From positions 1 through 54,584 of IMG/VR virus record IMGVR_UViG_3300007512_002354: a stretch of 54,584 nucleotides of DNA. One strand, written 5' to 3'. Below are positions 4,512 through 41,225 of this stretch, in pieces (positions within the stretch are counted from its first letter, which is position 1; each line of letters starts with the position of its first letter). Made by a program: the position numbers and the translations under genes. The notes under the pieces are model-generated. The model ran no database searches, had not been told where the DNA came from, and saw nothing but the letters and a program-made list of their open reading frames with translations. The DNA comes from a virus. Taxonomy: Duplodnaviria; Caudoviricetes.

Positions 4512-4950
4512 TTCTACACTGTAATCATTGTGGTCATTATGGACCAGAAGAACACTTTGAACTAGATGTCTGGGAATATTTTATCTGTCCACATTGTGGC
4601 GGTGAAGATATTCTCATTTTTCGAGACGAGGAAGACGATGAGACAAACAAGAGAACTACTAAGAGATCTATGCACGTTTAGAGCCCACGAAGCAATGTAT
4701 ATCATTGCAGGTGGTGCCTTTTTCAACGGCGTTGTCTGTGGAGTAGCTATTGGACATTATTTACTATGACCAATCAAGAACTAATCAAAATTATTGCTGA
4801 AGTAAAAGCATATGAAAAAACAATCAAAATCATGAGTGAGTCAATTGATAAAATTGAAGCAAAAATAATTCAAGAAGAAATAAGACCGCGAACTGAACAG
4901 CAAAACGTAGACCCTTTTGGTCTTCCCGAAGACTAAAAATAGAGGTACAA

Positions 4951-5175
4951 ATGAGAATGATTCCCGCACTGTTAACAACAGTGCTATGGATTGGTACTAT
5001 TGACCAAATCCAAGGAGAACTCGCAACAGTTGAAGTCACTGCAAGTGATAACAAAATCAGATATATGGAAATGTCCACTTTGGTATTTCCATGCGAAGTA
5101 AAAGAACAGAGCATGTTTTACTTTATATATTCTGAAGGAGTAACTGAAATTAGATGTGGCGAGCCACCGGAATAA
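4951..5175 (+). CDS. Small hypothetical protein, possible signal peptide
   Basis: GAGG RBS, hydrophobic N-terminus. Confidence 0.55.
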   Translation: MRMIPALLTTVLWIGTIDQIQGELATVEVTASDNKIRYMEMSTLVFPCEVKEQSMFYFIYSEGVTEIRCGEPPE

Positions 5176-5179
5176 ATAA

Positions 5180-5256
5180 GCGCCCGTAGCTCAGCTGGAT
5201 AGAGCATCGGCCTTCTAAGCCGAGGGTCATAGGTTCGAATCCTATCGGGCGTGCCA
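5180..5256 (+). tRNA. tRNA-Arg (anticodon TCT)
   Basis: GCGCCCG/CGGGCGT acceptor stem, TCGGC-CTTCTAA-GCCGA anticodon arm, GGTTCGAATCC T-arm, encoded CCA. Confidence 0.95.
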
Positions 5257-5279
5257 TTTGCTAAAACATAGGAAATATT

Positions 5280-6746
5280 ATGGAAATATCTCTCGTAATA
5301 GAAACAAACAAAGGAAGCGTTAAAGTTTATAGAAACTCTAACGATATAAAAACTCAATACGATTCAGTACTAAATTGTATTCGACAATTAGAATTGATCG
5401 AAAATCAAGACAACGTACCCCAACAAATTGCCAATCTAGACGAAGTCCTTGACCTCTTGGGTCAACTACTACTAGTGGCTGAAGAAGATTTTTAATGACA
5501 AATTATATTGGCTTATGCGAACTTTGTAGTTCGCCGGAACCCTGCAACCAGTGCCTTGGGTTACCCCTCCTGAAAGAGAAAATCAAAACAATTAATTCAG
5601 ATAAAACTAAACATGAAACAGAATGGATAAATATCTCTGACAAGACAAACAAAGCAACTCTTTACAATATGATTAAATCATTAAAAGAGAATAAATAATG
5701 GATGGATATATTATCGAAAGATGTGGTGTCAGCTGGAATAAAAGATTCTGGATTGATATGCCATCAGTAGGCGTTAAAGGCTTTGGCGAAGACAAACGTG
5801 CACGCATCTTTTTTACTAAAAAGGAAGCGGAAGATACACTCAGGGAAATCGATCAAGAATTTGGATGTCACTGTTTTGTGACAAAACTATCTGATCTCTA
5901 TCCATCTTTTACCGAGGGTATGTAATGAACTTAGTTGAACAATATTTATTGGCAGCATTTCTCATCCTCTCAATACCAATAGGTTTTTTACTATATATTC
6001 TTTACAGTATTTCTTCAGTAATATAAAATGTGGTGGAAAATATACAAGTGGGACGGAAGGTACATTCAGGGTGAATATATTAGCAAACACAAAACAAAAG
6101 AAAAAGCTCTAGAAAAAGCTAAGATAGCTACTAATTATTTTTACGATACTTATGAAAAGAATGATAACGAAGAAAGGATATGGCTTGATAATAAAAACCA
6201 TATTCCTGTCGGGATCATTATTCGGAAAACAAATGACATATGAAGACACTGTTAAAAAATGGAACAGCTCTTGTCCAGAATGCAATTCTCCAATTATCTG
6301 GAGTCTTGCCAGCGGCAGACCTGGGGCTGAAGCTTCAGCTATCTGTGCTAACAATATGACTGTATCAATTAATATACCAATCAATCAGCTGCGCAATCAC
6401 GCCTATTGTTTCTGGCGAGGTGCTGCGGTACGACAAAAAGATCAATCAGTAAGAATCAAAAACCTTGATAATTCTTGGTTGAACGAACACTACAGGAAAA
6501 ACAATGTCCAGACATAACGACTTTCTTAGCTACCTATCCAGAACTCCGAAGGAGATCCAAGGAGATAAAGCAATAAAAAATAATAATGAAGCACACCTTA
6601 TGCTTGATAAGCACGATATACCTAGATTCGAAACATATCTTACAGATGAGAACGAATGTAAAATGAAATATTACTCACTTGTAGAAAGAATAGAAATGTA
6701 TGGAAAGTCACGAAACATTCCAAGCTTAACTAGAGGAAATTCCTAA
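5280..6746 (+). other. String of small hypothetical ORFs (5280..5495, 5495..5698, 5698..5925, 6028..6243, ~6233..6517, 6504..6746)
   Basis: Tightly packed co-oriented ORFs, several with stop/start overlaps; no family recognised. Confidence 0.55.
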
Positions 6747-7614: not shown

Positions 7615-8336
7615 TGGAAAAATCAATATATTTATATGGAGACGACATTGGAAGAGTTGATTATGTTGAACATATGGGCACCGACCTCACTATCGTCAAC
7701 AGTGCCCGCGTTAGTTTTGGTAAACATAAAGAAGAAATAGATAAACAAGATGAACGTCTCATTAATTACCTGGTTAAACACAGGCACACTAGTACATTTG
7801 AACACAACGTTGTTACTTTTCGTTTTGTGGTTCCTCTTTTTGTCAGGTCTCAGCATCATCGGCATAGGACTTGGTCATATAATGAAATATCACGGAGATA
7901 TACTAAAGAGAACTTACAGTTTTACGAACCTGAAGAATTCAGAACACAACACGAATCAAATAGACAAGCCTCCAACACAACTGAACTCTGCAACCCGTTA
8001 ATTTCTTACCCAAGAATTAACTATGCAGCGTTACAAGCTTCTGACGCCCTAAAGGAGCACTCTAGGATTAGTAGAGCGCTATACGAAAGGCTGATGGAAG
8101 CTGGCATTTGTAGAGAACAAGCACGAGGAGTTCTTCCTCAAAACATGTATACCGAGTATTATGGTACAGTAAACTTAAATAATCTATTAAAGTTTATTGA
8201 ACTACGTAGTCACCAAGGTGCTCAATGGGAAATACAAAAAGTGGCTGAAGCTTGCTTAGAAATTGCAACTAGCTTATGGCCAATTGCAGTTGATGCTTAT
8301 AAGAGTGCAAGAAATGAGTTACAAACCTCTACCTAA
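7614..8336 (+). CDS. thyX: FAD-dependent thymidylate synthase
   Basis: NSARVSF, HTSTFEH, QHHRHRTWSYNEISRRY, REQARGVLP, LRSHQGAQWEI. Confidence 0.97.
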   Translation: MEKSIYLYGDDIGRVDYVEHMGTDLTIVNSARVSFGKHKEEIDKQDERLINYLVKHRHTSTFEHNVVTFRFVVPLFVRSQHHRHRTWSYNEISRRYTKENLQFYEPEEFRTQHESNRQASNTTELCNPLISYPRINYAALQASDALKEHSRISRALYERLMEAGICREQARGVLPQNMYTEYYGTVNLNNLLKFIELRSHQGAQWEIQKVAEACLEIATSLWPIAVDAYKSARNELQTST

Positions 8337-8940: not shown

Positions 8941-9139
8941 AGCTTTGGTATGGCGATTCTTCATAGCTATACCAATGGGCATAATCATAACTTATTTATA
9001 CATCGGAAAACTTTGGGAAACAATTGAGTTCACCATATTGATCAATGTGATCAGTACTATATTTTACTATCTATTTGATCTCTTCTGGTGTAAAATAACA
9101 GGGAAAAGAAATGAAAGAAAAAATACAAAAAACAATTAA
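8906..9139 (+). CDS. Small membrane protein, DUF2061-like
   Basis: KALVWRF plus two TM segments and YYLFD..W. Confidence 0.55.
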   Translation: MEHNQKKLLLIKALVWRFFIAIPMGIIITYLYIGKLWETIEFTILINVISTIFYYLFDLFWCKITGKRNERKNTKNN

Positions 9140-9365
9140 TGAAGACATAAATCCAATGTTAGCTCAGCATCATGGATCGGTTTCTATTGACAAAATAGAA
9201 GTAAAAGAAGCCAGTTACAGGGTATATCTCACATTCGAAGGCTTATGTCAGGGATGTCCATCAGCATTTACTGGCACCCTTAAAATGATTGAGTTCCATC
9301 TAAGAGAGGAGCTAAACCTACCAGGACTTACAGTTATAAATAGTGAAGGTATGCAATGGGAATAA
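9111..9365 (+). CDS. NifU/NfuA-domain Fe-S protein
   Basis: INPMLAQHHGSV ... FEGLCQGCPSAFTGTLK. Confidence 0.9.
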   Translation: MKEKIQKTINEDINPMLAQHHGSVSIDKIEVKEASYRVYLTFEGLCQGCPSAFTGTLKMIEFHLREELNLPGLTVINSEGMQWE

Positions 9366-9685
9366 AATTAACTGAACAAGCAAAAACAAATATATTAAAG
9401 ATTAAAAAGAAAACTGCACCAAATGAAAAATATTTGAGAGTTGGATTGAAGTCAGGCGGATGCTCTGGGTTCTCATATTCTTATGAGTTCACGAACATTA
9501 CCAATGAAAACGACAAACTCTTTAAATTTGGTGATCTCACAATCTGTATAGATAAGAAATCATATTTTTATTTAAACGGATTAACAATTGACTATAAAGA
9601 AGATCTTTTTAAATCTGGCTTAGAATTCAAAGCCCCAAATGCTACAAGATCTTGTGGCTGTGGGGAATCCATAGCTTTCGAATGA
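9356..9685 (+). CDS. iscA: A-type Fe-S carrier (IscA/HesB family)
   Basis: LRVGLKSGGCSGFSY ... PNATRSCGCGESI. Confidence 0.93.
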   Translation: MGIKLTEQAKTNILKIKKKTAPNEKYLRVGLKSGGCSGFSYSYEFTNITNENDKLFKFGDLTICIDKKSYFYLNGLTIDYKEDLFKSGLEFKAPNATRSCGCGESIAFE

Positions 9686-10107
9686 TCCGCATTTATACAG
9701 ACGGAGCATACAGGAAGTTACTTGATTCTGCTGGTGCTGGAGTATTGATTATATGGGAGGATGGAAAACTATCCTCTTATTGTAAATACTTAGGCGACAC
9801 AACAAATAATCGTGCAGAATTACAAGCAATAAAGTATGGATTAACTATAGCTCTGATAGAAACAGGAGGATCTACTCCTGTAAAAGTATTATCTGATTCA
9901 ACATATGCTCTTGGTATTGCTGGCAATACTATGAAAGCAAAAGCTAACAAAGAGTTAGCTGAAGAAACACGAGCTATAGTTTCAGAATTCAGTGATATAA
10001 AATTTGTATGGGTAAAAGGTCATTCAAAAGATAGGTACAATCGATTGGCAGATCTGTTAGCTAATGTAGCTATAGATCAACACCTAGGTTTGGATACAAA
10101 GTATTAA
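9682..10107 (+). CDS. rnhA: Ribonuclease HI
   Basis: IYTDGA, TTNNRAEL, SDSTY, WVKGHS, NRLADLLA. Confidence 0.93.
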   Translation: MIRIYTDGAYRKLLDSAGAGVLIIWEDGKLSSYCKYLGDTTNNRAELQAIKYGLTIALIETGGSTPVKVLSDSTYALGIAGNTMKAKANKELAEETRAIVSEFSDIKFVWVKGHSKDRYNRLADLLANVAIDQHLGLDTKY

Positions 10108-10111
10108 TTGG

Positions 10112-10127
10112 GCGGGCTTACGCCCGC
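10112..10127. promoter_or_regulatory. C-TTAC-G hairpin, copy 2
   Basis: GCGGGC-TTAC-GCCCGC, identical to 3247..3262, upstream of ssb. Confidence 0.6.
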
Positions 10128-10191
10128 TCGGCTCTATGGCGGCTGCTTTATCTGTCGCTTTTTTTAATAACAAACTGGAGAATACAAACCA

Positions 10192-33816: not shown

Positions 33817-35106
33817 ATGAAAGATTTTGTACATCTTCATGTTCATACGGAGTACTCCCTTTTAGATGGTATCAACCGAGTCAAAACATTACCTGAGCAT
33901 ATAAAGAACCTCGGGCAACGTTCACTCGCGATTACAGATCACGGAAATGTAAGCGGATCTTATAGATTTTATAAATCTTGTAAAAAAGTAGGGATACAAC
34001 CAATTATAGGTATGGAAGCCTACTATACTATCAACGATAGAACAGTTAGAGAAGTAGACGACTTAGGAGAATCTTATTACCACCTGATACTAATAGCTCT
34101 AAACAATAAAGGACTACACAACTTATATAAGTTATCAAGTTTCGCCTATACGCAAGGCATGTATAGGAAGCCAAGACTTGATGATATCCTACTCGGTGAA
34201 TATGGCGAAGGCATTTGTGCAACAACCGCCTGCCTTGGATCCAGGATATCCCAACTAATATTAAAAGACAGAGTAAAAGAAGCTGAAATGATGATTGATC
34301 ATCATAGAGCTTTGTTCTCTAATAGATTCTTAATAGAGCTACAACTCCACGAAATGGAAGATCAACAAATAGTAAATAAAGTTCTTATGGAAATAGCATT
34401 GAGAAAAAACATCCCAATGGTATTAACTAATGACTGTCACTATACTCATGAATTAGATAAACAACTACACGAAGCTGCTCTATGCATGCAAACTAAGACA
34501 ACACTATCCAATGAGAATAGATTCACTTTTGGAGAAATAGATGTCCATGTTGCTTCCCATGATTGGATGAAAGCAAAAGCTGAAGAGCAAGGAATACCCT
34601 ACGAAGCAATTCGGAATACAGTACATGTAGCAGACATGGTGGATTCTAACGATTACTTCACTGATAGAATGAATCGCTATCCTAGGTATAAAGATGTTCC
34701 AGAGAATCTAAAGTCTTGGCAATTTTTAGAGATAGAAGCAAAGCAAGGCCTGTATAATAGATTCAAAGGTATGCCACCTGACAGCTACAAAAGCAGATTA
34801 GACGAAGAGCTTACTACAATTAAGAAGATGGGCTTCTCAGACTACATGCTTATTGTTGCACAGTTTATGAACGGTGCAAGGGATGTAGGAGTGCTACATG
34901 GACCCGGAAGGGGTTCTGCAGCAGGCTCATTGGTTGCTTATGCATTAAAAATAACCGAAGTAGATCCAATTAAATATGGATTGCTCTTCGCTAGATTTTT
35001 AAACAGTGGCAGAGGAGCTACTCCTCTAATATTTGATCAAGAGCTAGCAAGTAAAATTGATTGCAGTAAGCATCATCCTAACGGCAAGTGCCCCTCCTGT
35101 GAGTAA
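33817..35106 (+). CDS. dnaE: DNA polymerase III alpha, fragment 1 (PHP domain and start of palm)
   Basis: FVHLHVHTEYSLLDG, AITDHG, TNDCHY, GPGRGSAAGSLVAY, LLFARFLNSGR, then a short non-conserved tail. Confidence 0.95.
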   Translation: MKDFVHLHVHTEYSLLDGINRVKTLPEHIKNLGQRSLAITDHGNVSGSYRFYKSCKKVGIQPIIGMEAYYTINDRTVREVDDLGESYYHLILIALNNKGLHNLYKLSSFAYTQGMYRKPRLDDILLGEYGEGICATTACLGSRISQLILKDRVKEAEMMIDHHRALFSNRFLIELQLHEMEDQQIVNKVLMEIALRKNIPMVLTNDCHYTHELDKQLHEAALCMQTKTTLSNENRFTFGEIDVHVASHDWMKAKAEEQGIPYEAIRNTVHVADMVDSNDYFTDRMNRYPRYKDVPENLKSWQFLEIEAKQGLYNRFKGMPPDSYKSRLDEELTTIKKMGFSDYMLIVAQFMNGARDVGVLHGPGRGSAAGSLVAYALKITEVDPIKYGLLFARFLNSGRGATPLIFDQELASKIDCSKHHPNGKCPSCE

Positions 35107-35115
35107 CAGGAGGGG
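35091..35115. promoter_or_regulatory. Perfect 10-bp hairpin over the dnaE fragment 1 stop codon
   Basis: CCCCTCCTGT-GAGTA-ACAGGAGGGG; no T-tract on either side. Confidence 0.6.
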
Positions 35116-35179
35116 ATACTTAACAACCGTTTTTACACCTAGCTACTGGTCGCAACATCCATCTTTTCATACTACACCT

Positions 35180-35560
35180 CTACCAAAGTATTAGAGTCAT
35201 AACACCCGTCAGAGCAGTATCAGTCACAGTACCACACTCAAAAGACTCAATACCCAAGCCCTCTGGGGTGCGGGGAAGAGTTGAATCTAAAGTAATTGTA
35301 GCAATATTTGCTGCAGTAGGTAGCAGCCACTTTAAAACGGTAACATCACACTGACTCTCTCTCGGAGATACGACTCTCCGAAGATTGTTGAGAACAATAT
35401 CAACTTCATCATTTGTTGGATCTACTATTACTGCTTGTATACCTCTTGCAGGTCGACCAAGTATTGCCTTGCAATCGATTTGATTTCCCGAAGAAACGTC
35501 GACTGTAGCACTTTGTAAAGTATTATAGCGACCGGTTGAAGAACTTGAAGAAAAACCCAT
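35180..35560 (-). CDS. Hypothetical protein inserted antisense between dnaE fragments 1 and 2
   Basis: ORF with AGGAG RBS 8 nt before ATG 35560; no nuclease motif. Confidence 0.65.
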   Translation of the reverse strand: MGFSSSSSTGRYNTLQSATVDVSSGNQIDCKAILGRPARGIQAVIVDPTNDEVDIVLNNLRRVVSPRESQCDVTVLKWLLPTAANIATITLDSTLPRTPEGLGIESFECGTVTDTALTGVMTLILW

Positions 35561-35573
35561 TTGGAGCACTCCT

Positions 35574-37166
35574 ATGATTAAACAAATTAAAAAATACTAT
35601 ATACCTGATCGTTTATCTCAAGTAGACAGTGACTTCCTTTCTTTCGAGGAGGAAATGATCTCCTCTACAGATCAGGAAAGAATACTAACACTATTAAATA
35701 ACAATATGAAAGCAAAAATCTCTAACCCTTACAATAGTATCATATTATATATATGCGGTCTAAGCAATGAATTCAACTTTCAGACAGAAAGATCTGAAAC
35801 TATTGACGGTAGTCCACCTGATATCGATATTGATCATGACGCTTTAGAACGTGAAAAAGCAATTGAATGGGCTGTTGAATACTGGGGTAGAGATCAAGTC
35901 GCCAACATAATTACACACGGAACTTTTAAGCCAAAATCATTAGCAAGATCTTATTACAGGGTTACTGAAGGCCCAACTACAGAGCTGAGTGATATCTTAA
36001 AGATGATACCTCCTCCCAAATACGGGAGAGAAGCAACTCTTGAAGAAATCACAACAGCACATCCTGAATTAAAAGAAGATAAAACATACGACAGCTTTTA
36101 CTCAGCTGCAGAAAAGCTTGAGAATATGGTATCAAACTTTGGAATCCATGCCGCAGGTATTGTTATATCCAATTTTCCAATTTCAGATGTTGTTCCAACC
36201 TGGAAAAACGGAAAAGCAGACTTGATCACCCAGTTTGATAAAAACGAAGTAGAAGAACTAGGCTTAATCAAATTCGATTTCCTAGGAATTGATACACTAT
36301 CTATTATAAAAGAAGCTCTCAGCTTGATAAAGCAAGAGAAAGATTTGGAAATAGATCCATATGCAATTGAAGATGAAGATCCAAAAACCTATACTATGAT
36401 GGAACACGGATTACTAACTGGAGTATTCCAGATGGAAACTTCAGGTATGGCAAAGAGACTAATAAAAAGAATTAAGCCAAAAAATATTAACGAGCTAAGC
36501 GACATTAGTGCACTCAATAGACCTGGGCCTTTACAGGCCCAGCTTGACGAACAATATATATTAAACAAAAACAACGGATACCCACCAGACGATCTACCAT
36601 CAGAACTTGCTAAAGTTCTTGAAGGAAGCTATTGGACACTAGTATACCAAGAGCAAGTAATGGCAATTTGTTCTGACCTTGCAGGATTCACAGAGAAAGA
36701 GTCTGATGATATCAGAAGAGCAATGGGAAAGAAGGATGCAAAAGTGCTAAACGCTTATAAAGAGAAATTCCTAAAAGGAATCTCAGAAAACGGAGCACTT
36801 AGCACCAGCTATAGTGAAGACCTATGGGAATCTCTAGTTGGTTTTGCAGACTATTGTCTTGAAGGAAGCACAAGAATACTAACCATTGAAAATGGACCAG
36901 TATCTGTTCGTGAAATAGTTGAAAATAAGCAAAAGGTAACTGTACTATCTGTAGATCAAGATGATATGATAGTTGCTCAAGAGATTAGTCAATGGCATAA
37001 TAATGGCCACAAAGATGTATACAGGTATACACTGTCAAATGAATTAGAAATTATTTGTACAGAAGATCATAAATTTATGACTGAAGATGGAGAAATGAAA
37101 ACCATAGATGATATCTATAGTAACGATTTGTCAATCTCAGTTAAAAAATTAATCTATTTATCGTAG
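35574..37166 (+). CDS. dnaE: DNA polymerase III alpha, fragment 2 (palm/thumb/fingers) fused to an N-intein
   Basis: SPPDIDID, GIHAAGIV, GLIKFDFLG, GVFQME, ALNRPGP, YQEQVM, RRAMGKK, FADY followed by intein. Confidence 0.96.
   Translation: MIKQIKKYYIPDRLSQVDSDFLSFEEEMISSTDQERILTLLNNNMKAKISNPYNSIILYICGLSNEFNFQTERSETIDGSPPDIDIDHDALEREKAIEWAVEYWGRDQVANIITHGTFKPKSLARSYYRVTEGPTTELSDILKMIPPPKYGREATLEEITTAHPELKEDKTYDSFYSAAEKLENMVSNFGIHAAGIVISNFPISDVVPTWKNGKADLITQFDKNEVEELGLIKFDFLGIDTLSIIKEALSLIKQEKDLEIDPYAIEDEDPKTYTMMEHGLLTGVFQMETSGMAKRLIKRIKPKNINELSDISALNRPGPLQAQLDEQYILNKNNGYPPDDLPSELAKVLEGSYWTLVYQEQVMAICSDLAGFTEKESDDIRRAMGKKDAKVLNAYKEKFLKGISENGALSTSYSEDLWESLVGFADYCLEGSTRILTIENGPVSVREIVENKQKVTVLSVDQDDMIVAQEISQWHNNGHKDVYRYTLSNELEIICTEDHKFMTEDGEMKTIDDIYSNDLSISVKKLIYLS
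36855..37163 (+). mobile_element. Split intein, N-terminal half (103 aa)
   Basis: Starts CLEGSTRILT after FADY; QWHNNG; block B CTEDHKFMT; ends at a stop codon. Confidence 0.95.
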
Positions 37167-37176
37167 GAGGCTAGAT

Positions 37177-37617
37177 ATGCCAAAAATTAGACAGGTATCA
37201 GGCTCAGTGGCGCTCAGAGGGCGCCTTTATCATGAGCAATCAGCTGTTGACAACACTGCTTGGACTTGGTCTGAATTCACCGTACCTACCGAAGGTATAA
37301 TTCATCGAGTCCGAGTTGTTCAACAAAATAAAGCAGATGAACTCGAAGTAATGGTTATGGAAAAAGATCCAGACGATGAAATGCCTTTAGCAGATGAAGA
37401 CCATCCACCCCTTTCCGTTATACTTAAATATGCTTCATCAGCTGGTCAATTAGACAGCGAAGAGTTTACATATTTTAAAGTGCCCCAAGACAGCGACCTT
37501 ACAGACGGAGAAGGTGCAGATATGAAGCGCCATGGATCTCTATTCGTAGGTCTTAAATCAAATAACGGGGCGGCACAACCGGTTAAGATTTTGATTGACT
37601 TTGAAGTAGTAGCATAG
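37177..37617 (+). CDS. Hypothetical beta-rich protein, possibly virion-associated
   Basis: AGGAGG RBS, 146 aa, no nuclease motif. Confidence 0.7.
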   Translation: MPKIRQVSGSVALRGRLYHEQSAVDNTAWTWSEFTVPTEGIIHRVRVVQQNKADELEVMVMEKDPDDEMPLADEDHPPLSVILKYASSAGQLDSEEFTYFKVPQDSDLTDGEGADMKRHGSLFVGLKSNNGAAQPVKILIDFEVVA

Positions 37618-37629
37618 AAGGAGGGTACA

Positions 37630-38829
37630 ATGGGTTATTATAGTAAAAAAATAGCAACATCAAGAGTTGTCCCTCCCGCCCCCTCGGGGGGAGGGGGAGG
37701 CAATCCTGATCTTGTTCCCCCTCTTGCAGAGATAGGTCCACACCATGAGAACGCTGGCACAACTAGTAAAAGCGTTTCATTTAATGCCTTTACTGGTGGC
37801 TCTGGCTCTCATACTGTAACTGGAAGCTTGATTAAACCTGGTGGATCGCCAGCAACACTATCTGGTACTGGATTGTCCTACACTATTAACAATATGAGAG
37901 ATGGAGAGTCCTATAGACTGACAGCTTATGCAACAGATGACGGTGACGGACAGAAAGCGCAAACAAGTGTAGTCGTTTCTGTGGAACAAGCAGTAACAAC
38001 CACTCCACCATTCCAAATGGTAAGCGGTGATCTAACTTGGAAAACCCATATATCCGTTGACAGTCTCAGCAATGTAGACATGGCTAACCAAGTCTCAGCA
38101 CTTCCACTGTTGGCACCAAGCTCAGCATATGGTTCCATTAAAATAACTGACGCAACTTCAGATTCATATATAGACACTGGCGTAGATATTGGGAACACAA
38201 CCGATACGACTATTTCCATCTGGGTGAAAACCAGTGAGAATGATGGAACTATAATGTCAACAGATGAGGGTGGCTATGACTGGACTCTAGGAATGGACAA
38301 CGGCAACTGGAGATTTGCAAATGGTAGCAATTGGCATAATACGAATATAGCTTACATTCATGACCAATGGTATCACCTATCAGCTGTATTTGATGTTGCC
38401 GCTAGTACTCTATATTTCTATATCGATGGAGTACAGGTTTGGACAAAAAGTATTACTACCGATGTCAATACAGGTAGCTGGTATATAGGCAGGAGCCCTC
38501 ACTATGCAGCCAATAGATTCGAGGGAGAAGTTGCAGGAGTAACAATATGGGACAAAGCGCTTACTGGACCAGAAATTACCGACATATATGGAGGCGGTTA
38601 CACATTTGATGTAACAACAAATTCAGGCAACTACGCATCATCTGCTGATGTTCTATCTCATATCAAAAGGGGAGAAATTCCTAATAGCAGGGGCTATAAC
38701 AAAAATCCAGATACCGGAGAAGAAACCCCTCTTGGTGCCGAAGCGGCATTACAAACTTTAGACATGCCGGTTGATACTGGCAACACAGTTATCGGCCCTC
38801 AAACATTTTTAGGAACATCTGTTCCGTAA
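37630..38829 (+). CDS. LamG/concanavalin-A-like domain protein, probable virion fibre or adhesin
   Basis: TISIWVK, QWYHLSAVFD, FYIDG, IGR, FEGEVAGVTIWDKALT; Gly/Ser/Thr-rich N-terminus. Confidence 0.85.
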   Translation: MGYYSKKIATSRVVPPAPSGGGGGNPDLVPPLAEIGPHHENAGTTSKSVSFNAFTGGSGSHTVTGSLIKPGGSPATLSGTGLSYTINNMRDGESYRLTAYATDDGDGQKAQTSVVVSVEQAVTTTPPFQMVSGDLTWKTHISVDSLSNVDMANQVSALPLLAPSSAYGSIKITDATSDSYIDTGVDIGNTTDTTISIWVKTSENDGTIMSTDEGGYDWTLGMDNGNWRFANGSNWHNTNIAYIHDQWYHLSAVFDVAASTLYFYIDGVQVWTKSITTDVNTGSWYIGRSPHYAANRFEGEVAGVTIWDKALTGPEITDIYGGGYTFDVTTNSGNYASSADVLSHIKRGEIPNSRGYNKNPDTGEETPLGAEAALQTLDMPVDTGNTVIGPQTFLGTSVP

Positions 38830-38841
38830 TAGGAGTAAATT

Positions 38842-39954
38842 ATGCCAGTTATACCATTAAATGATTTAACATGGAAACAATCAGCACTAACAAACCACTC
38901 AGTCTCAGCTGTAGGAAAGCTAAAAGCCATAAGAGATATTGTAGATGCGATAGACTCAAACGGCGGCGACTGGGAAGTTAAAGACTTCTGCCTTGAAGGT
39001 GAAACCAAATTCAATGGTGGCGCCAATACTGCATCTGGTAACGGAACGCTTATCATAGGCAATAAAAACAGTAGTGCTATACCTAACCAAAGGATTGTAT
39101 TTGGTGGCAATTCAGCCGGAAAGAACATGAACAATTATGGCTGCCCACCACACAATGAGTCGTCTACAAATCAAACCAGTGAGCAAGTATTTGGCGGCTA
39201 CGCACCGGATGGATTTGGTGTTGATGCTGGCGCAATTCAGCCAAGCGGAAACACTTTAACAAGCAGCGATGATGAAGCATGGTATACTCAAGACCCATCT
39301 GGCAACGGCTCTAAGCCCTGGACAAAGTATGCCCTTGTTACGTCTCAGCCAGGAGATCAAACCTGGATAATTCACTCTGAAGATATATTGTGTATAGGGC
39401 ATAGAAAAGTTTCTGAAAACAAGTGTCATCTATGGGCAGCTGGACGCATACTTGAAGCAGCAGATACGGAAAGTGGCTGGACCGATTGGGATAAAGGCAT
39501 ACCAGGTATGTTCGCTGGAGGTGGAGAAGCAGGCAATGCTTCTTACTGGACTCCTAGCAACTTCTGGAACCTAGGCTTCAATACCAATGGAGGCTTTATG
39601 AATGGCTCTAGTGTCCAAAATGAACTTAAAAAACCTGTATTCGCAATATTGTCACCAGAGAATGAGAACTTACACGAAAAAATAAGAAGAATTCACAACG
39701 AAACTCTTCTTGAACCAAACGGTCTTGGCTATCTAACAACCACAAGCGGAAAGCAAGTCTTTCTGCCAGTCCATTATTGTAGAGCAGAAGGATATTATCA
39801 ATATATAGGCAAGCTCCGCAACATGGGCTATGCTAATGATGCCATCTGCAGGCAACAGCTACATGACAACAATGATTATTTACACGTTATATATTTCTCA
39901 AGGAGTACTACTACAGCTGGAGACGCACTAGCTTTTGTAAATCCAGCACCATAA
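38842..39954 (+). CDS. Gly/Asn/Ser-rich hypothetical protein, possibly virion-associated
   Basis: AGGAG RBS, composition, adjacency to the LamG gene. Confidence 0.65.
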   Translation: MPVIPLNDLTWKQSALTNHSVSAVGKLKAIRDIVDAIDSNGGDWEVKDFCLEGETKFNGGANTASGNGTLIIGNKNSSAIPNQRIVFGGNSAGKNMNNYGCPPHNESSTNQTSEQVFGGYAPDGFGVDAGAIQPSGNTLTSSDDEAWYTQDPSGNGSKPWTKYALVTSQPGDQTWIIHSEDILCIGHRKVSENKCHLWAAGRILEAADTESGWTDWDKGIPGMFAGGGEAGNASYWTPSNFWNLGFNTNGGFMNGSSVQNELKKPVFAILSPENENLHEKIRRIHNETLLEPNGLGYLTTTSGKQVFLPVHYCRAEGYYQYIGKLRNMGYANDAICRQQLHDNNDYLHVIYFSRSTTTAGDALAFVNPAP

Positions 39955-39971
39955 TCGCACGGAGGATCTTA

Positions 39972-40076
39972 ATGAAGATCATATCTAGAGAGTATGTTGG
40001 GGAGAGCGAAGTCTATGACATTGGCCTTCCCGATATACACAACTTTATTCTAGAAAATGGAACCGTCGCTAGCAAC
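39972..40076 (+). mobile_element. Split intein, C-terminal half (35 aa)
   Basis: MKIISREYVGESEVYDIGLPDIHNFILENGTVASN followed by +1 Cys (CFN). Confidence 0.95.
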
Positions 40077-41225
40077 TGTTTTAATAAAGCTCATAGCGTT
40101 AGCTATAGTATGCTAACATATATATCTGCCTACCTTAAGGCAAACTATGCTTCAGAATTTTTCTGTGCACTAATGACTGTTAGATCCAAGTCCCTACAAC
40201 CTAAAACTTGGGCAACAAAAGCACCTGAATATATTCAAGAGGCACAAGCATTTGGAGTAGAAATACACCCGCCTTCGATAAATTCATCAAACCTCGGATT
40301 TAGTATTAGAGACGAAGATGTTTACTTTGGCCTAAATGCAATTAGAGATGTAGGTAAAACTGCTGCTCGGACGATAGTCCGAGCGAGAGGAGAGGCACCC
40401 TATAAAAGTGTCTTCGACTTTCTCCAAAGAGTAAACCTACAAAAAGTAACAACCAAAACATTCATAAGCCTTGTCAAGGCTGGAGCGTTTGATATGTTGG
40501 GGTATGATCGCAGTGATCTTATCCAAAACTCTCAAGCACTATATGATTATATTAGAGATGTAGTAGAATATGAGCAAAGAAAAATTGATCTTGTTGTTAG
40601 AGAAAAGGAAATTGAAGACTTGACTGTAGTCATTGACAAAAGAAATATTTTGCGCAAAGAACTAAAGAAAATAGAAAAAGAACTTAAGAAAGTAGAAGAC
40701 AAAAATTTATTATCAAGGAAGTTAGAAGTAGAAGAAGAGCTTTTTCCTCTAGAACAAATGAATCTAAGAAGAAAGCCAAGGCTTAAACCTAAACAAGAAC
40801 CACAAAAACCTGAACTAGTCAGATCCGAAGAAGTTGAAATAAATATTCATCAGATAATGGAACAGGCACACTATATCGGTTGCTATATTGGGACTCACCC
40901 AGCACAACTAATAAATAGTTCAGGCACAGTTAAGATAAAGAACCTTTATAAAGGGCAAAAGACATATGTATGTGGAGTCATAAATTCACTAAAAGTTATA
41001 CGCACTCGAAAGGGTCACGAAATGGCTTTCTGTGAAATTGACGACTCGACCAGTACAGCTGAGGTAACTATTTTTCCAAGAACTTGGAAGAATGCAAAAC
41101 TAAATAATATCTCAGAAAACAAACTGGTAAGAATGAAAATAAAAACAGAGCAAGAAGAGCCAGTAATCAAGCTTATTGCAGACTCAATTGTGGTCTATCA
41201 GGAGAATATAGATGAAATGGCGTGA
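39972..41225 (+). CDS. dnaE: C-intein fused to DNA polymerase III alpha fragment 3 (HhH and OB fold)
   Basis: CFNKAHSVSY, YLKANY, PPSINSS, FGLNAIRDVG, AGAFD, GHEMAFCEIDD; GGAGG RBS. Confidence 0.96.
   Translation: MKIISREYVGESEVYDIGLPDIHNFILENGTVASNCFNKAHSVSYSMLTYISAYLKANYASEFFCALMTVRSKSLQPKTWATKAPEYIQEAQAFGVEIHPPSINSSNLGFSIRDEDVYFGLNAIRDVGKTAARTIVRARGEAPYKSVFDFLQRVNLQKVTTKTFISLVKAGAFDMLGYDRSDLIQNSQALYDYIRDVVEYEQRKIDLVVREKEIEDLTVVIDKRNILRKELKKIEKELKKVEDKNLLSRKLEVEEELFPLEQMNLRRKPRLKPKQEPQKPELVRSEEVEINIHQIMEQAHYIGCYIGTHPAQLINSSGTVKIKNLYKGQKTYVCGVINSLKVIRTRKGHEMAFCEIDDSTSTAEVTIFPRTWKNAKLNNISENKLVRMKIKTEQEEPVIKLIADSIVVYQENIDEMA

Follow-up and report, generated by a model that had tools for sequence, protein, structure and literature searches.

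Three genes for one DnaE-type polymerase

The window analyzed here is the 54.6-kb IMG/VR record IMGVR_UViG_3300007512_002354, which comes from an uncultured marine phage and covers an estimated 35% of its genome. The list of open reading frames (ORFs) revealed three plus-strand ORFs between positions 33817 and 41225, here called F1, F2 and F3, which jointly make up one DNA polymerase of the DnaE type (alpha subunit of DNA polymerase III, Pol III alpha). The domains of this enzyme are spread over three ORFs instead of being contained in one polypeptide, and the same was found in 19 further loci. The interruption between F1 and F2 is called break 1 and that between F2 and F3 break 2.

F1 (33817 to 35106, 429 aa) consists of a PHP domain and the N-terminal, nucleoside triphosphate (NTP)-binding part of the palm with its GRGS loop, followed by a tail of 30 aa. 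Pfam identified PHP (PF02811) at residues 6-178 (E 3.3e-45), and residues 303-403 correspond to positions 2-102 of the 260 positions of the DNA_pol3_alpha profile (PF07733). F2 (35574 to 37166, 530 aa) starts with a leader (35574 to 35810, residues 1-79), which in an alignment of 55 sequences appears as a conserved helical module ending in NP(H/Y)NSI(I/L)LY..GL(T/S). The extein core behind it (35811 to 36854, residues 80-427) carries D83, D85, K233 and D235, the remainder of the palm, the thumb and the beginning of the fingers, and ends in ..GFADY. It covers DNA_pol3_alpha positions 100-260 and the finger domain (7.4e-47), and VIA matched it to structures of Pol III alpha. Since the polymerase pieces of F1 and F2 meet at profile position 100-102, nothing is lost at break 1. 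The last part of F2 is an N-intein of 103 aa (36855 to 37166 including the stop codon, residues 428-530) with C428 as C1 and TEDH as block B; its Intein_splicing match of 32.2 bits lies under the Pfam cut-off of 35.8. F3 (39972 to 41225, 417 aa) opens with a C-intein (39972 to 40076, residues 1-35) ending in ..HNFILENGTVASN, and its extein (40077 to 41225) starts with CFNKAHS and provides the remaining fingers, the HhH domain (HHH_6, 3.7e-27) and an OB-like C-terminal domain.

Most of these boundaries had already been described in an original prediction made from the letters of the DNA alone. F1 indeed ends 30 residues past RFLNSGR, 79 residues precede S-PPDIDID in F2, where a leader of about this length had been proposed, and F3 begins with the C-intein as expected. 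The N-intein at the end of F2 was also recovered, with its start at C428 instead of near residue 442. In addition, each gene has a ribosome-binding site of its own, as had been claimed, with the Shine-Dalgarno-like sequences AAGGAG, GGAG and GGAGG in front of F1, F2 and F3, respectively.

The catalytic motifs are intact, in agreement with the original prediction, and extremely well conserved. G364-R365-G366-S367, R393, N396 and R399 of F1 are invariant in 20 of 20 sequences (alignment A3), and the same holds for D83, D85, D87, K233 and D235 of F2 in all 47 sequences of alignment A2. In Pol III alpha, the GRGS loop and the arginines hold the phosphates of the incoming nucleotide and the aspartates the metals. 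As the former are found in F1 and the latter in F2, the active site would be split between two chains.

The additional segments on both sides of break 1 are conserved as well. The F1 tails of the 19 loci follow the pattern GR-(G/A)-A-T-P-L-I-F-(N/D/T)-x-x-M and then continue with a variable end. The leader consensus from 55 sequences starts with Y-I-x-x-R-L-x-Q-V-D-x-D-F-L-x-F-E and ends with N-P-H-N-S-I-I-L-Y-I-T-G-L-T-D-x-F-D-F-x-K-A-R-S-D-T-I-G-G-S-P-P-D-I-D-I-D. Several F1 proteins also contain a short Cys/His-rich motif, e.g. CSKHHPNGKCPSCE, TKCNHKH or TTCGHSH, which may bind metal. In the window it forms the C-terminus of F1 (35050-35103). It is C-terminal in L003, L004, L056, L060, L064 and L076. 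Where F1 ends in ..PF, the motif is N-terminal in most of the relatives, as in L061, L063, L065, L069 and L074.

The complex of F1 with residues 1-427 of F2 was modelled with alignments A3 and A2 in three runs, alongside three controls. The interface score ipSAE reached 0.92 in all three runs and 0.00 for the best of the three controls, a result that possibly reflects recall of the many solved structures in which Pol III alpha is a single chain. The models contain 285-290 contacts with an agreement of at least 96% between runs and a predicted local distance difference test (pLDDT) value of 86 for the partner. During calibration of the tool, the mark was reached by 58 of 80 solved complexes and by 2 of 110 mismatched pairs. 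The modelled interface includes residues 364-368 (GRGSA) and 387-418 (last palm helix and tail) of F1 and residues 20-58 (leader) and 72-89 (catalytic strand) of F2, with residue 404 of F1 contacting residues 53 and 75 of F2. When F2 was modelled alone, the leader was helical with a pLDDT of 79-93, and the catalytic strand (71-90) had a pLDDT of 47-48.

The first break across the phage clade

For the identification of the same break in related phages, which had been suggested together with the original prediction, protein clusters were searched with the first 95 residues of F2. The search returned 59 clusters, and in all of them the leader is the N-terminus. 33 of the 59 end in an N-intein (498-552 aa), 17 are intein-free fusions of F2 and F3 (781-876 aa) reading ..GFADYCFNKSHS.., and 4 stop at ..RRAMG or ..RRAVG, which is the site of the group I intron in L004; the others are cut by contig ends. 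The leader was not found in any protein of 929-2650 aa, a search that gives weak evidence. In IMG/VR, F1 and F2 are separate ORFs in 19 of 19 analyzed loci, with F1 located 269-4041 nt upstream, and one further record has the two genes 9.2 kb apart. The break therefore does recur in relatives, and the claim that the locus does not represent decay is borne out by this clade-wide layout together with the invariant catalytic residues. Break 1 appears to be ancient and to have become fixed throughout a clade of uncultured marine phages, whose genomes measure about 180 kb.

Identity to the window ranges from 53 to 78% for F1 and from 47 to 68% for F2 across the 19 loci, and both genes differ most from the window in L073, L004 and L076. 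Since the identities of F1 and F2 fall together across loci, an origin of the two fragments from different DnaE lineages, which had been named as a possible objection, is not supported. Ranking of BLAST scores of F1 and F2 over 112 full-length DnaE proteins was uninformative for this question (rho 0.12), because all of these proteins are similarly distant. F1 shares about 44-46% identity with its nearest full-length relatives among DnaE proteins. Almost all of its top-scoring matches are short proteins of the F1 type (409-441 aa), with the single exception of a protein of 745 aa that was matched in two stretches. In a phage collection searched with tblastn, no record reached 60% identity for F1 or F2, and the best F1 match among those listed showed 43.5%. 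All F1 matches with more than 80% coverage in this collection are ordinary single-chain DnaE genes.

Misassembly as a cause of the break can be discounted as well: the layout recurs in 19 other loci, and the gap between F1 and F2 is for the most part tiled, with zero differences, by contigs from three other samples. One contig spans the gap as a whole; it comes from a run that is possibly identical to the source, and no contig of an independent run does so. Joints were not seen in the contigs over the gap from four DNA runs.

The gap between F1 and F2 comprises 467 nt and holds a hairpin and a minus-strand ORF. The hairpin (35091 to 35115) has a 9-bp stem formed by CCCCTCCTG and CAGGAGGGG, and the stop codon of F1 is located in its loop. 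It may act as a bidirectional terminator for F1 and the minus-strand ORF that converges with it. L003 also contains a hairpin, just past the stop codon of its F1. The hairpin of the window is absent from the list of the terminator scan because no T run follows it, and the matches of the promoter and terminator scan were in general not above shuffled expectation.

The minus-strand ORF (35180 to 35569) encodes 129 aa if started at GTG or 126 aa from the ATG chosen by the gene callers, and contains the motif LGRPAR. A homologue that diverges from F2 at the same place was found in 8 of 19 loci, among them the most distant. These small proteins have 120-175 aa, share the motif (I/L)LG(R/K)PA(R/S) and end similar to ..LILW; they are located at 7625-7987 in L003, at 7516-7935 in L004 and at the same place in L056, L060, L064, L073 and L076. 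The family may represent an old cargo at break 1. No Pfam or PHROG family was assigned to the ORF, the Atlas yielded only unnamed viral hypothetical clusters below 0.9, and a homologue search returned only one further cluster. The start codons of this ORF and F2 are separated by a spacer of 13 nt (35561 to 35573) with the inverted repeat GGAG-CA-CTCC, which provides a Shine-Dalgarno sequence on both strands. With the start codons so close to each other, the 5' ends of the two mRNAs must be mutually antisense. The 13-nt layout is also present in L003 (7988-8000), and versions with 18-20 nt occur in L056 and L073. In L004, four minus-strand cargo genes lie between F1 and F2, among them one for a patatin-like phospholipase (4825-5688, minus strand) with 27.6 bits against a cut-off of 27.7.

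An intron at break 1 was rejected after the Rfam search, which gave no match at E<=10 in 34800-36000 and none at the gathering threshold over the whole window. As a positive control, the same library detected group I introns (RF00028, 62-90 bits) in L004 (9183-9511), L074 (9888-10210), L076 (8735-8950) and L078 (11158-11468 and 18453-18721). These introns interrupt dnaE of all four relatives, at several differing positions, and in L078 another gene is hit too. In this clade, dnaE is a hot spot for mobile elements. In L076, F2 matches two separate stretches, 7711-8094 with its first 130 residues and 9001-10140 with residues 84-427. The two overlap by about 45 residues and enclose a group I intron, which could be explained by a partial duplication or by read-through into the intron.

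The leader of F2 resembles a polymerase segment that is already present in F1. In a MAFFT alignment, it aligns over the segment preceding PDIDID of full-length DnaE, and tblastn alignments of F2 to single-chain phage DnaE often begin at residue 54 and some at residues 19-20. A 95-residue model of the leader alone (pLDDT 79.9) was compared with 48,161 PDB representatives. The seven best matches were all C-family polymerases, in each case with the stretch directly before the catalytic aspartates. Among them are residues 317-410 of M. tuberculosis DnaE1 (5lew), with Z 5.1 and a root mean square deviation (rmsd) of 2.9 A over 75 aligned residues, and residues 288-390 of E. coli alpha (5m1s/5fku), with Z 4.3-4.4. 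The match ranking next, an unrelated one, had a Z of 2.7. This palm stretch is the one supplied by residues 303-403 of F1. Conversely, ..A-T-P-L-I-F-D of the F1 tail aligns with S-P-P-D-I-D-I-D, the aspartates being replaced, and the leader lacks the GRGS loop in the alignment of 55 sequences. A comparison of 55 leaders with 19 F1 sequences by hhalign returned only SIILYICGLS / SLVAYALKIT (F1 371-380), which is the expected pairing but non-significant (probability 0.13, E 0.45).

The split intein at the second break

The intein halves match the DnaE split inteins of Npu and Ssp (PDB 4lx3, E 2.9e-21; 5ol7, E 3e-10), and superposition of the intein fold by VIA gave a Z of 14.8 and an rmsd of 2.5 A over 101 residues. 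The window has the full set of splicing residues (C428, TEDH and ..ASN|C). Across the family, all 33 N-inteins carry C1 and TxxH, and all 9 C-inteins examined carry SN|CFNK. The trans-splicing of F2 and F3 put forward in the original prediction is thereby supported by homology, by the fold match and by the intact splicing residues. The junction of the window reads ..GFADY|CFNKAHS. The native extein flanks of the Npu intein are given as AEY|CFN in the text of the source (PMC8484483), and as ADY|CFN matches these published flanks, the insertion point corresponds to the cyanobacterial one. This comparison relies on the publication because a scan of cellular genome contigs with the N-intein returned no cyanobacterial gene and only one distant locus in an archaeal metagenome-assembled genome (29% identity).

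Among the 59 clusters, the split intein is present in 33 and absent in the 17 with fused F2 and F3; it apparently comes and goes within the clade. The halves are 2.8 kb apart in the window and 2.1-8.4 kb apart in relatives. In the window, three plus-strand cargo ORFs lie between them, encoding proteins of 146 aa (37177 to 37617), 399 aa (37630 to 38829) and 370 aa (38842 to 39954). The second contains a concanavalin/LamG-type domain (Laminin_G_3, 2.2e-20), and the other two have no Pfam or PHROG family. A homing endonuclease family was not found in any of the three with Pfam and PHROG. The cargo varies by phage, and in L057 and L065 it includes collagen-repeat proteins of more than 1100 aa. 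Both breaks seem to be drop-in sites for unrelated cargo genes.

The genes neighbouring the polymerase in the window encode a UvsX/RecA-like recombinase, a metallophosphoesterase, a Cas4-like nuclease and a primase-helicase. Two tRNA genes are located at 1534-1606 and 5180-5253 (74 and 72 bits).

Proposed assembly and comparison with known split polymerases

We consider it likely that a replicative C-family DNA polymerase (DnaE / Pol III alpha) is built here from three gene products via two different routes. From the intact catalytic residues and the homology of the intein, we infer that F2 and F3 would associate via the intein halves and be trans-spliced at ..GFADY|CFNKAHS.. to a chain of about 810 residues. 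From the conservation and the complex model, we infer that F1 would stay non-covalent and dock on the F2 part of this chain, which would result in a composite active site. F1 would contribute the PHP domain, the triphosphate-binding GRGS loop and the arginines, and F2 the three catalytic aspartates. The F1 tail (GR-GATPLIF..) and the helical leader could serve as an additional clasp at the joint. An intein-independent association of F1 and F2 had been part of the original prediction and gains support from the conservation, from the lack of an intron or Hint domain and from the score of the modelled complex in comparison with its controls.

A replicative function is suggested by the complete relative G004 (183.5 kb, with terminal repeats), which has 0 matches to DNA_pol_A, 0 to DNA_pol_B and exactly two DNA_pol3_alpha pieces; matches to DNA_pol_B were absent from 4 of 4 records, G004 included. 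As G004 is without a family A or B polymerase, the split enzyme is probably the replicase. Some points weigh against the proposed three-piece replicase. As the window represents about 35% of the genome, a second polymerase is possible elsewhere in the window's own phage. The complex model shows the fit to a known fold, i.e. likeness, and is no proof of binding. F1 was not found in the 98.6-kb record that holds L066, which says little given that only 6.1 kb lie upstream of F2. Finally, the OB match of F3 (21.9 bits) is under the Pfam cut-off of 27.

The gene could also be decaying or dispensable, with F1 as a leftover or a free PHP nuclease or phosphatase and F2-F3 acting alone or being inactive. 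The helical module of F2 fills the place of the missing palm segment, so that the F2 fold might be self-sufficient, and the distance between F1 and F2 reaches 9.2 kb. Against this, the GRGS loop is lost from the leader, yet GRGS, R393 and R399 are invariant in 20 of 20 F1 sequences; all 19 loci retain the layout at 40-78% identity, the split gene is the sole recognisable polymerase of G004, and the model sets the GRGS loop of F1 against the catalytic strand of F2. We therefore regard decay as improbable. At the second break, the intein halves might merely hold F2 and F3 together after splicing has been lost. This is unlikely as well, since every copy examined has retained C1 and TxxH (33 N-inteins) or the terminal Asn and the +1 Cys (9 C-inteins), and the flanking residues correspond to the exteins that the active Npu intein prefers, as described in the text of PMC8484483.

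Joining of F1 and F2 to one polypeptide at the RNA level, by a group I or group II intron, trans-splicing or recoding, would fit the frequency of group I introns in dnaE of the clade (L004, L074, L076, L078). It is nevertheless very improbable in view of the empty Rfam result over the gap, the conserved gene on the opposite strand inside it, and a gap content that is variable, with a length from 0.27 to 9.2 kb. A Shine-Dalgarno sequence and a start codon are available to F2 for separate translation, and joining would remove or duplicate the F1 tail and the F2 leader, both of which show conservation at the protein level. Even less probable, and in our view close to negligible, is a second intein-type joint at break 1, either an atypical split intein or a splicing-dead remnant that acts as a clasp. 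The extensions of about 30 aa in F1 and 79 aa in F2 do resemble atypically split inteins. However, the leader is all-helical (pLDDT 79-93) in contrast to the beta-rich Hint domains, its best structural matches are palms of C-family polymerases and not inteins, Pfam detected no intein family in F1 or in residues 1-79 of F2, and conserved Cys, Ser or Thr residues are missing at the would-be junctions. The dead-intein clasp was rejected for the helical leader and its match to polymerase palms.

For the origin of the break between F1 and F2, the modelled leader fold, which looks like a degenerate second copy of the palm segment of F1, is suggestive of fission by partial duplication. We tentatively propose, with somewhat less than even confidence, that break 1 arose from a partial tandem duplication of about 100 codons round the active site, followed by complementary decay. 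F1 would have kept the working NTP-binding subdomain, and its tail ..TPLIF.. would be a dead copy of the PDIDID strand. F2 would have kept the working strand, and its 79-aa leader would be a shrunken copy of the NTP-binding subdomain that has lost GRGS. The two ghost segments would then have been recruited as the clasp of an obligate two-chain active site. Contrary to this speak the low absolute Z values of the leader fold, the PDIDID strand contained in the leader model, which possibly steered the fold, and the hhalign comparison, which yielded no more than the expected ten-residue pairing at a non-significant E. If true, the duplication would represent a natural, datable case of an essential enzyme being split without a dead intermediate, a difficulty to which Dassa et al. 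2009 (PMC2677866) draw attention in their introduction with regard to broken dnaE genes.

An active site formed non-covalently by two chains would be a natural test of the connectivity that the palm of C-family polymerases needs, and the split polymerase would illustrate a route to the splitting of an essential gene. The presence or absence of the intein in otherwise similar genes offers material on its origin and spread without a homing endonuclease, and the 33 N-intein variants, all with their catalytic residues intact, form a pool of natural relatives of an intein that is widely applied in protein engineering. Annotation pipelines will label the pieces as fragments or pseudogenes, for which a clade-specific rule would be useful.

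Literature searches turned up no publication on the three-piece clade; related loci may be listed in the supplement of Dassa et al. 2009 (Table S1) or among the figure data provided by Iyer et al. 2021. The closest counterpart of break 2 is the cyanobacterial split DnaE intein (dnaE-n and dnaE-c of Synechocystis and Nostoc; 4lx3, 4qfq, 1zde). It shares the host protein, the insertion point, the split into about 100 and 35 residues and the complete set of splicing residues, and it is homologous in sequence. In contrast to the distant loci of cyanobacteria, the halves described here are encoded on one strand of a phage genome with cargo between them. Moreover, the intein is optional (17 of 59 clusters are intein-free fusions), and the gene has an extra intein-free break. 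Split inteins that cut DnaE and other replication genes, with DNA between the halves, are also described in the text of Dassa et al. 2009 (PMC2677866) for environmental phage-like loci. In the three fractured DnaE loci presented there, the inteins occupy other insertion points and a free-standing homing endonuclease is encoded between the halves. The window has in common with them a DnaE cut by a split intein and other DNA between the halves, whereas it uses the cyanobacterial site, and its intervening genes are one LamG gene and two without family, with no endonuclease family among them.

Essential replication enzymes in two polypeptides are likewise known from T4-like phages, in which, according to the text of the same source (PMC2677866), the gp43 DNA polymerase is split into two genes and NrdA is split by a homing endonuclease, both intein-free. 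Common to these cases and to break 1 are two non-covalent polypeptides and foreign DNA at the break. In contrast to gp43, the polymerase described here belongs to family C instead of family B, the cut runs through the active-site region, and conserved extra segments are found on both ends. For break 1, the nearest counterpart by description is the minimal Pol III alpha of group 2.2 jumbo phages (Iyer et al. 2021, PMC7824862). In the account given there, this enzyme is split between the NTP-binding and the Mg2+/template-binding subdomains. It lacks PHP and further domains, its genes lie far apart, a family B polymerase occurs alongside it, and its pieces are presumed to assemble into a single enzyme. 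The boundary of the break is the same, with GRGS/RFLN in F1 and PDIDID in F2. The polymerase of the window, however, is full-size, with PHP, fingers, HhH and an OB-like end, its genes are usually neighbours, and the complete relative G004 has no family A or B polymerase. The layout is not a one-off, and partial conceptual precedents exist in both studies (Dassa et al. 2009; Iyer et al. 2021). It combines a DnaE split intein of the cyanobacterial type with a full-size version of the jumbo-phage split, in a clade without another recognisable polymerase.

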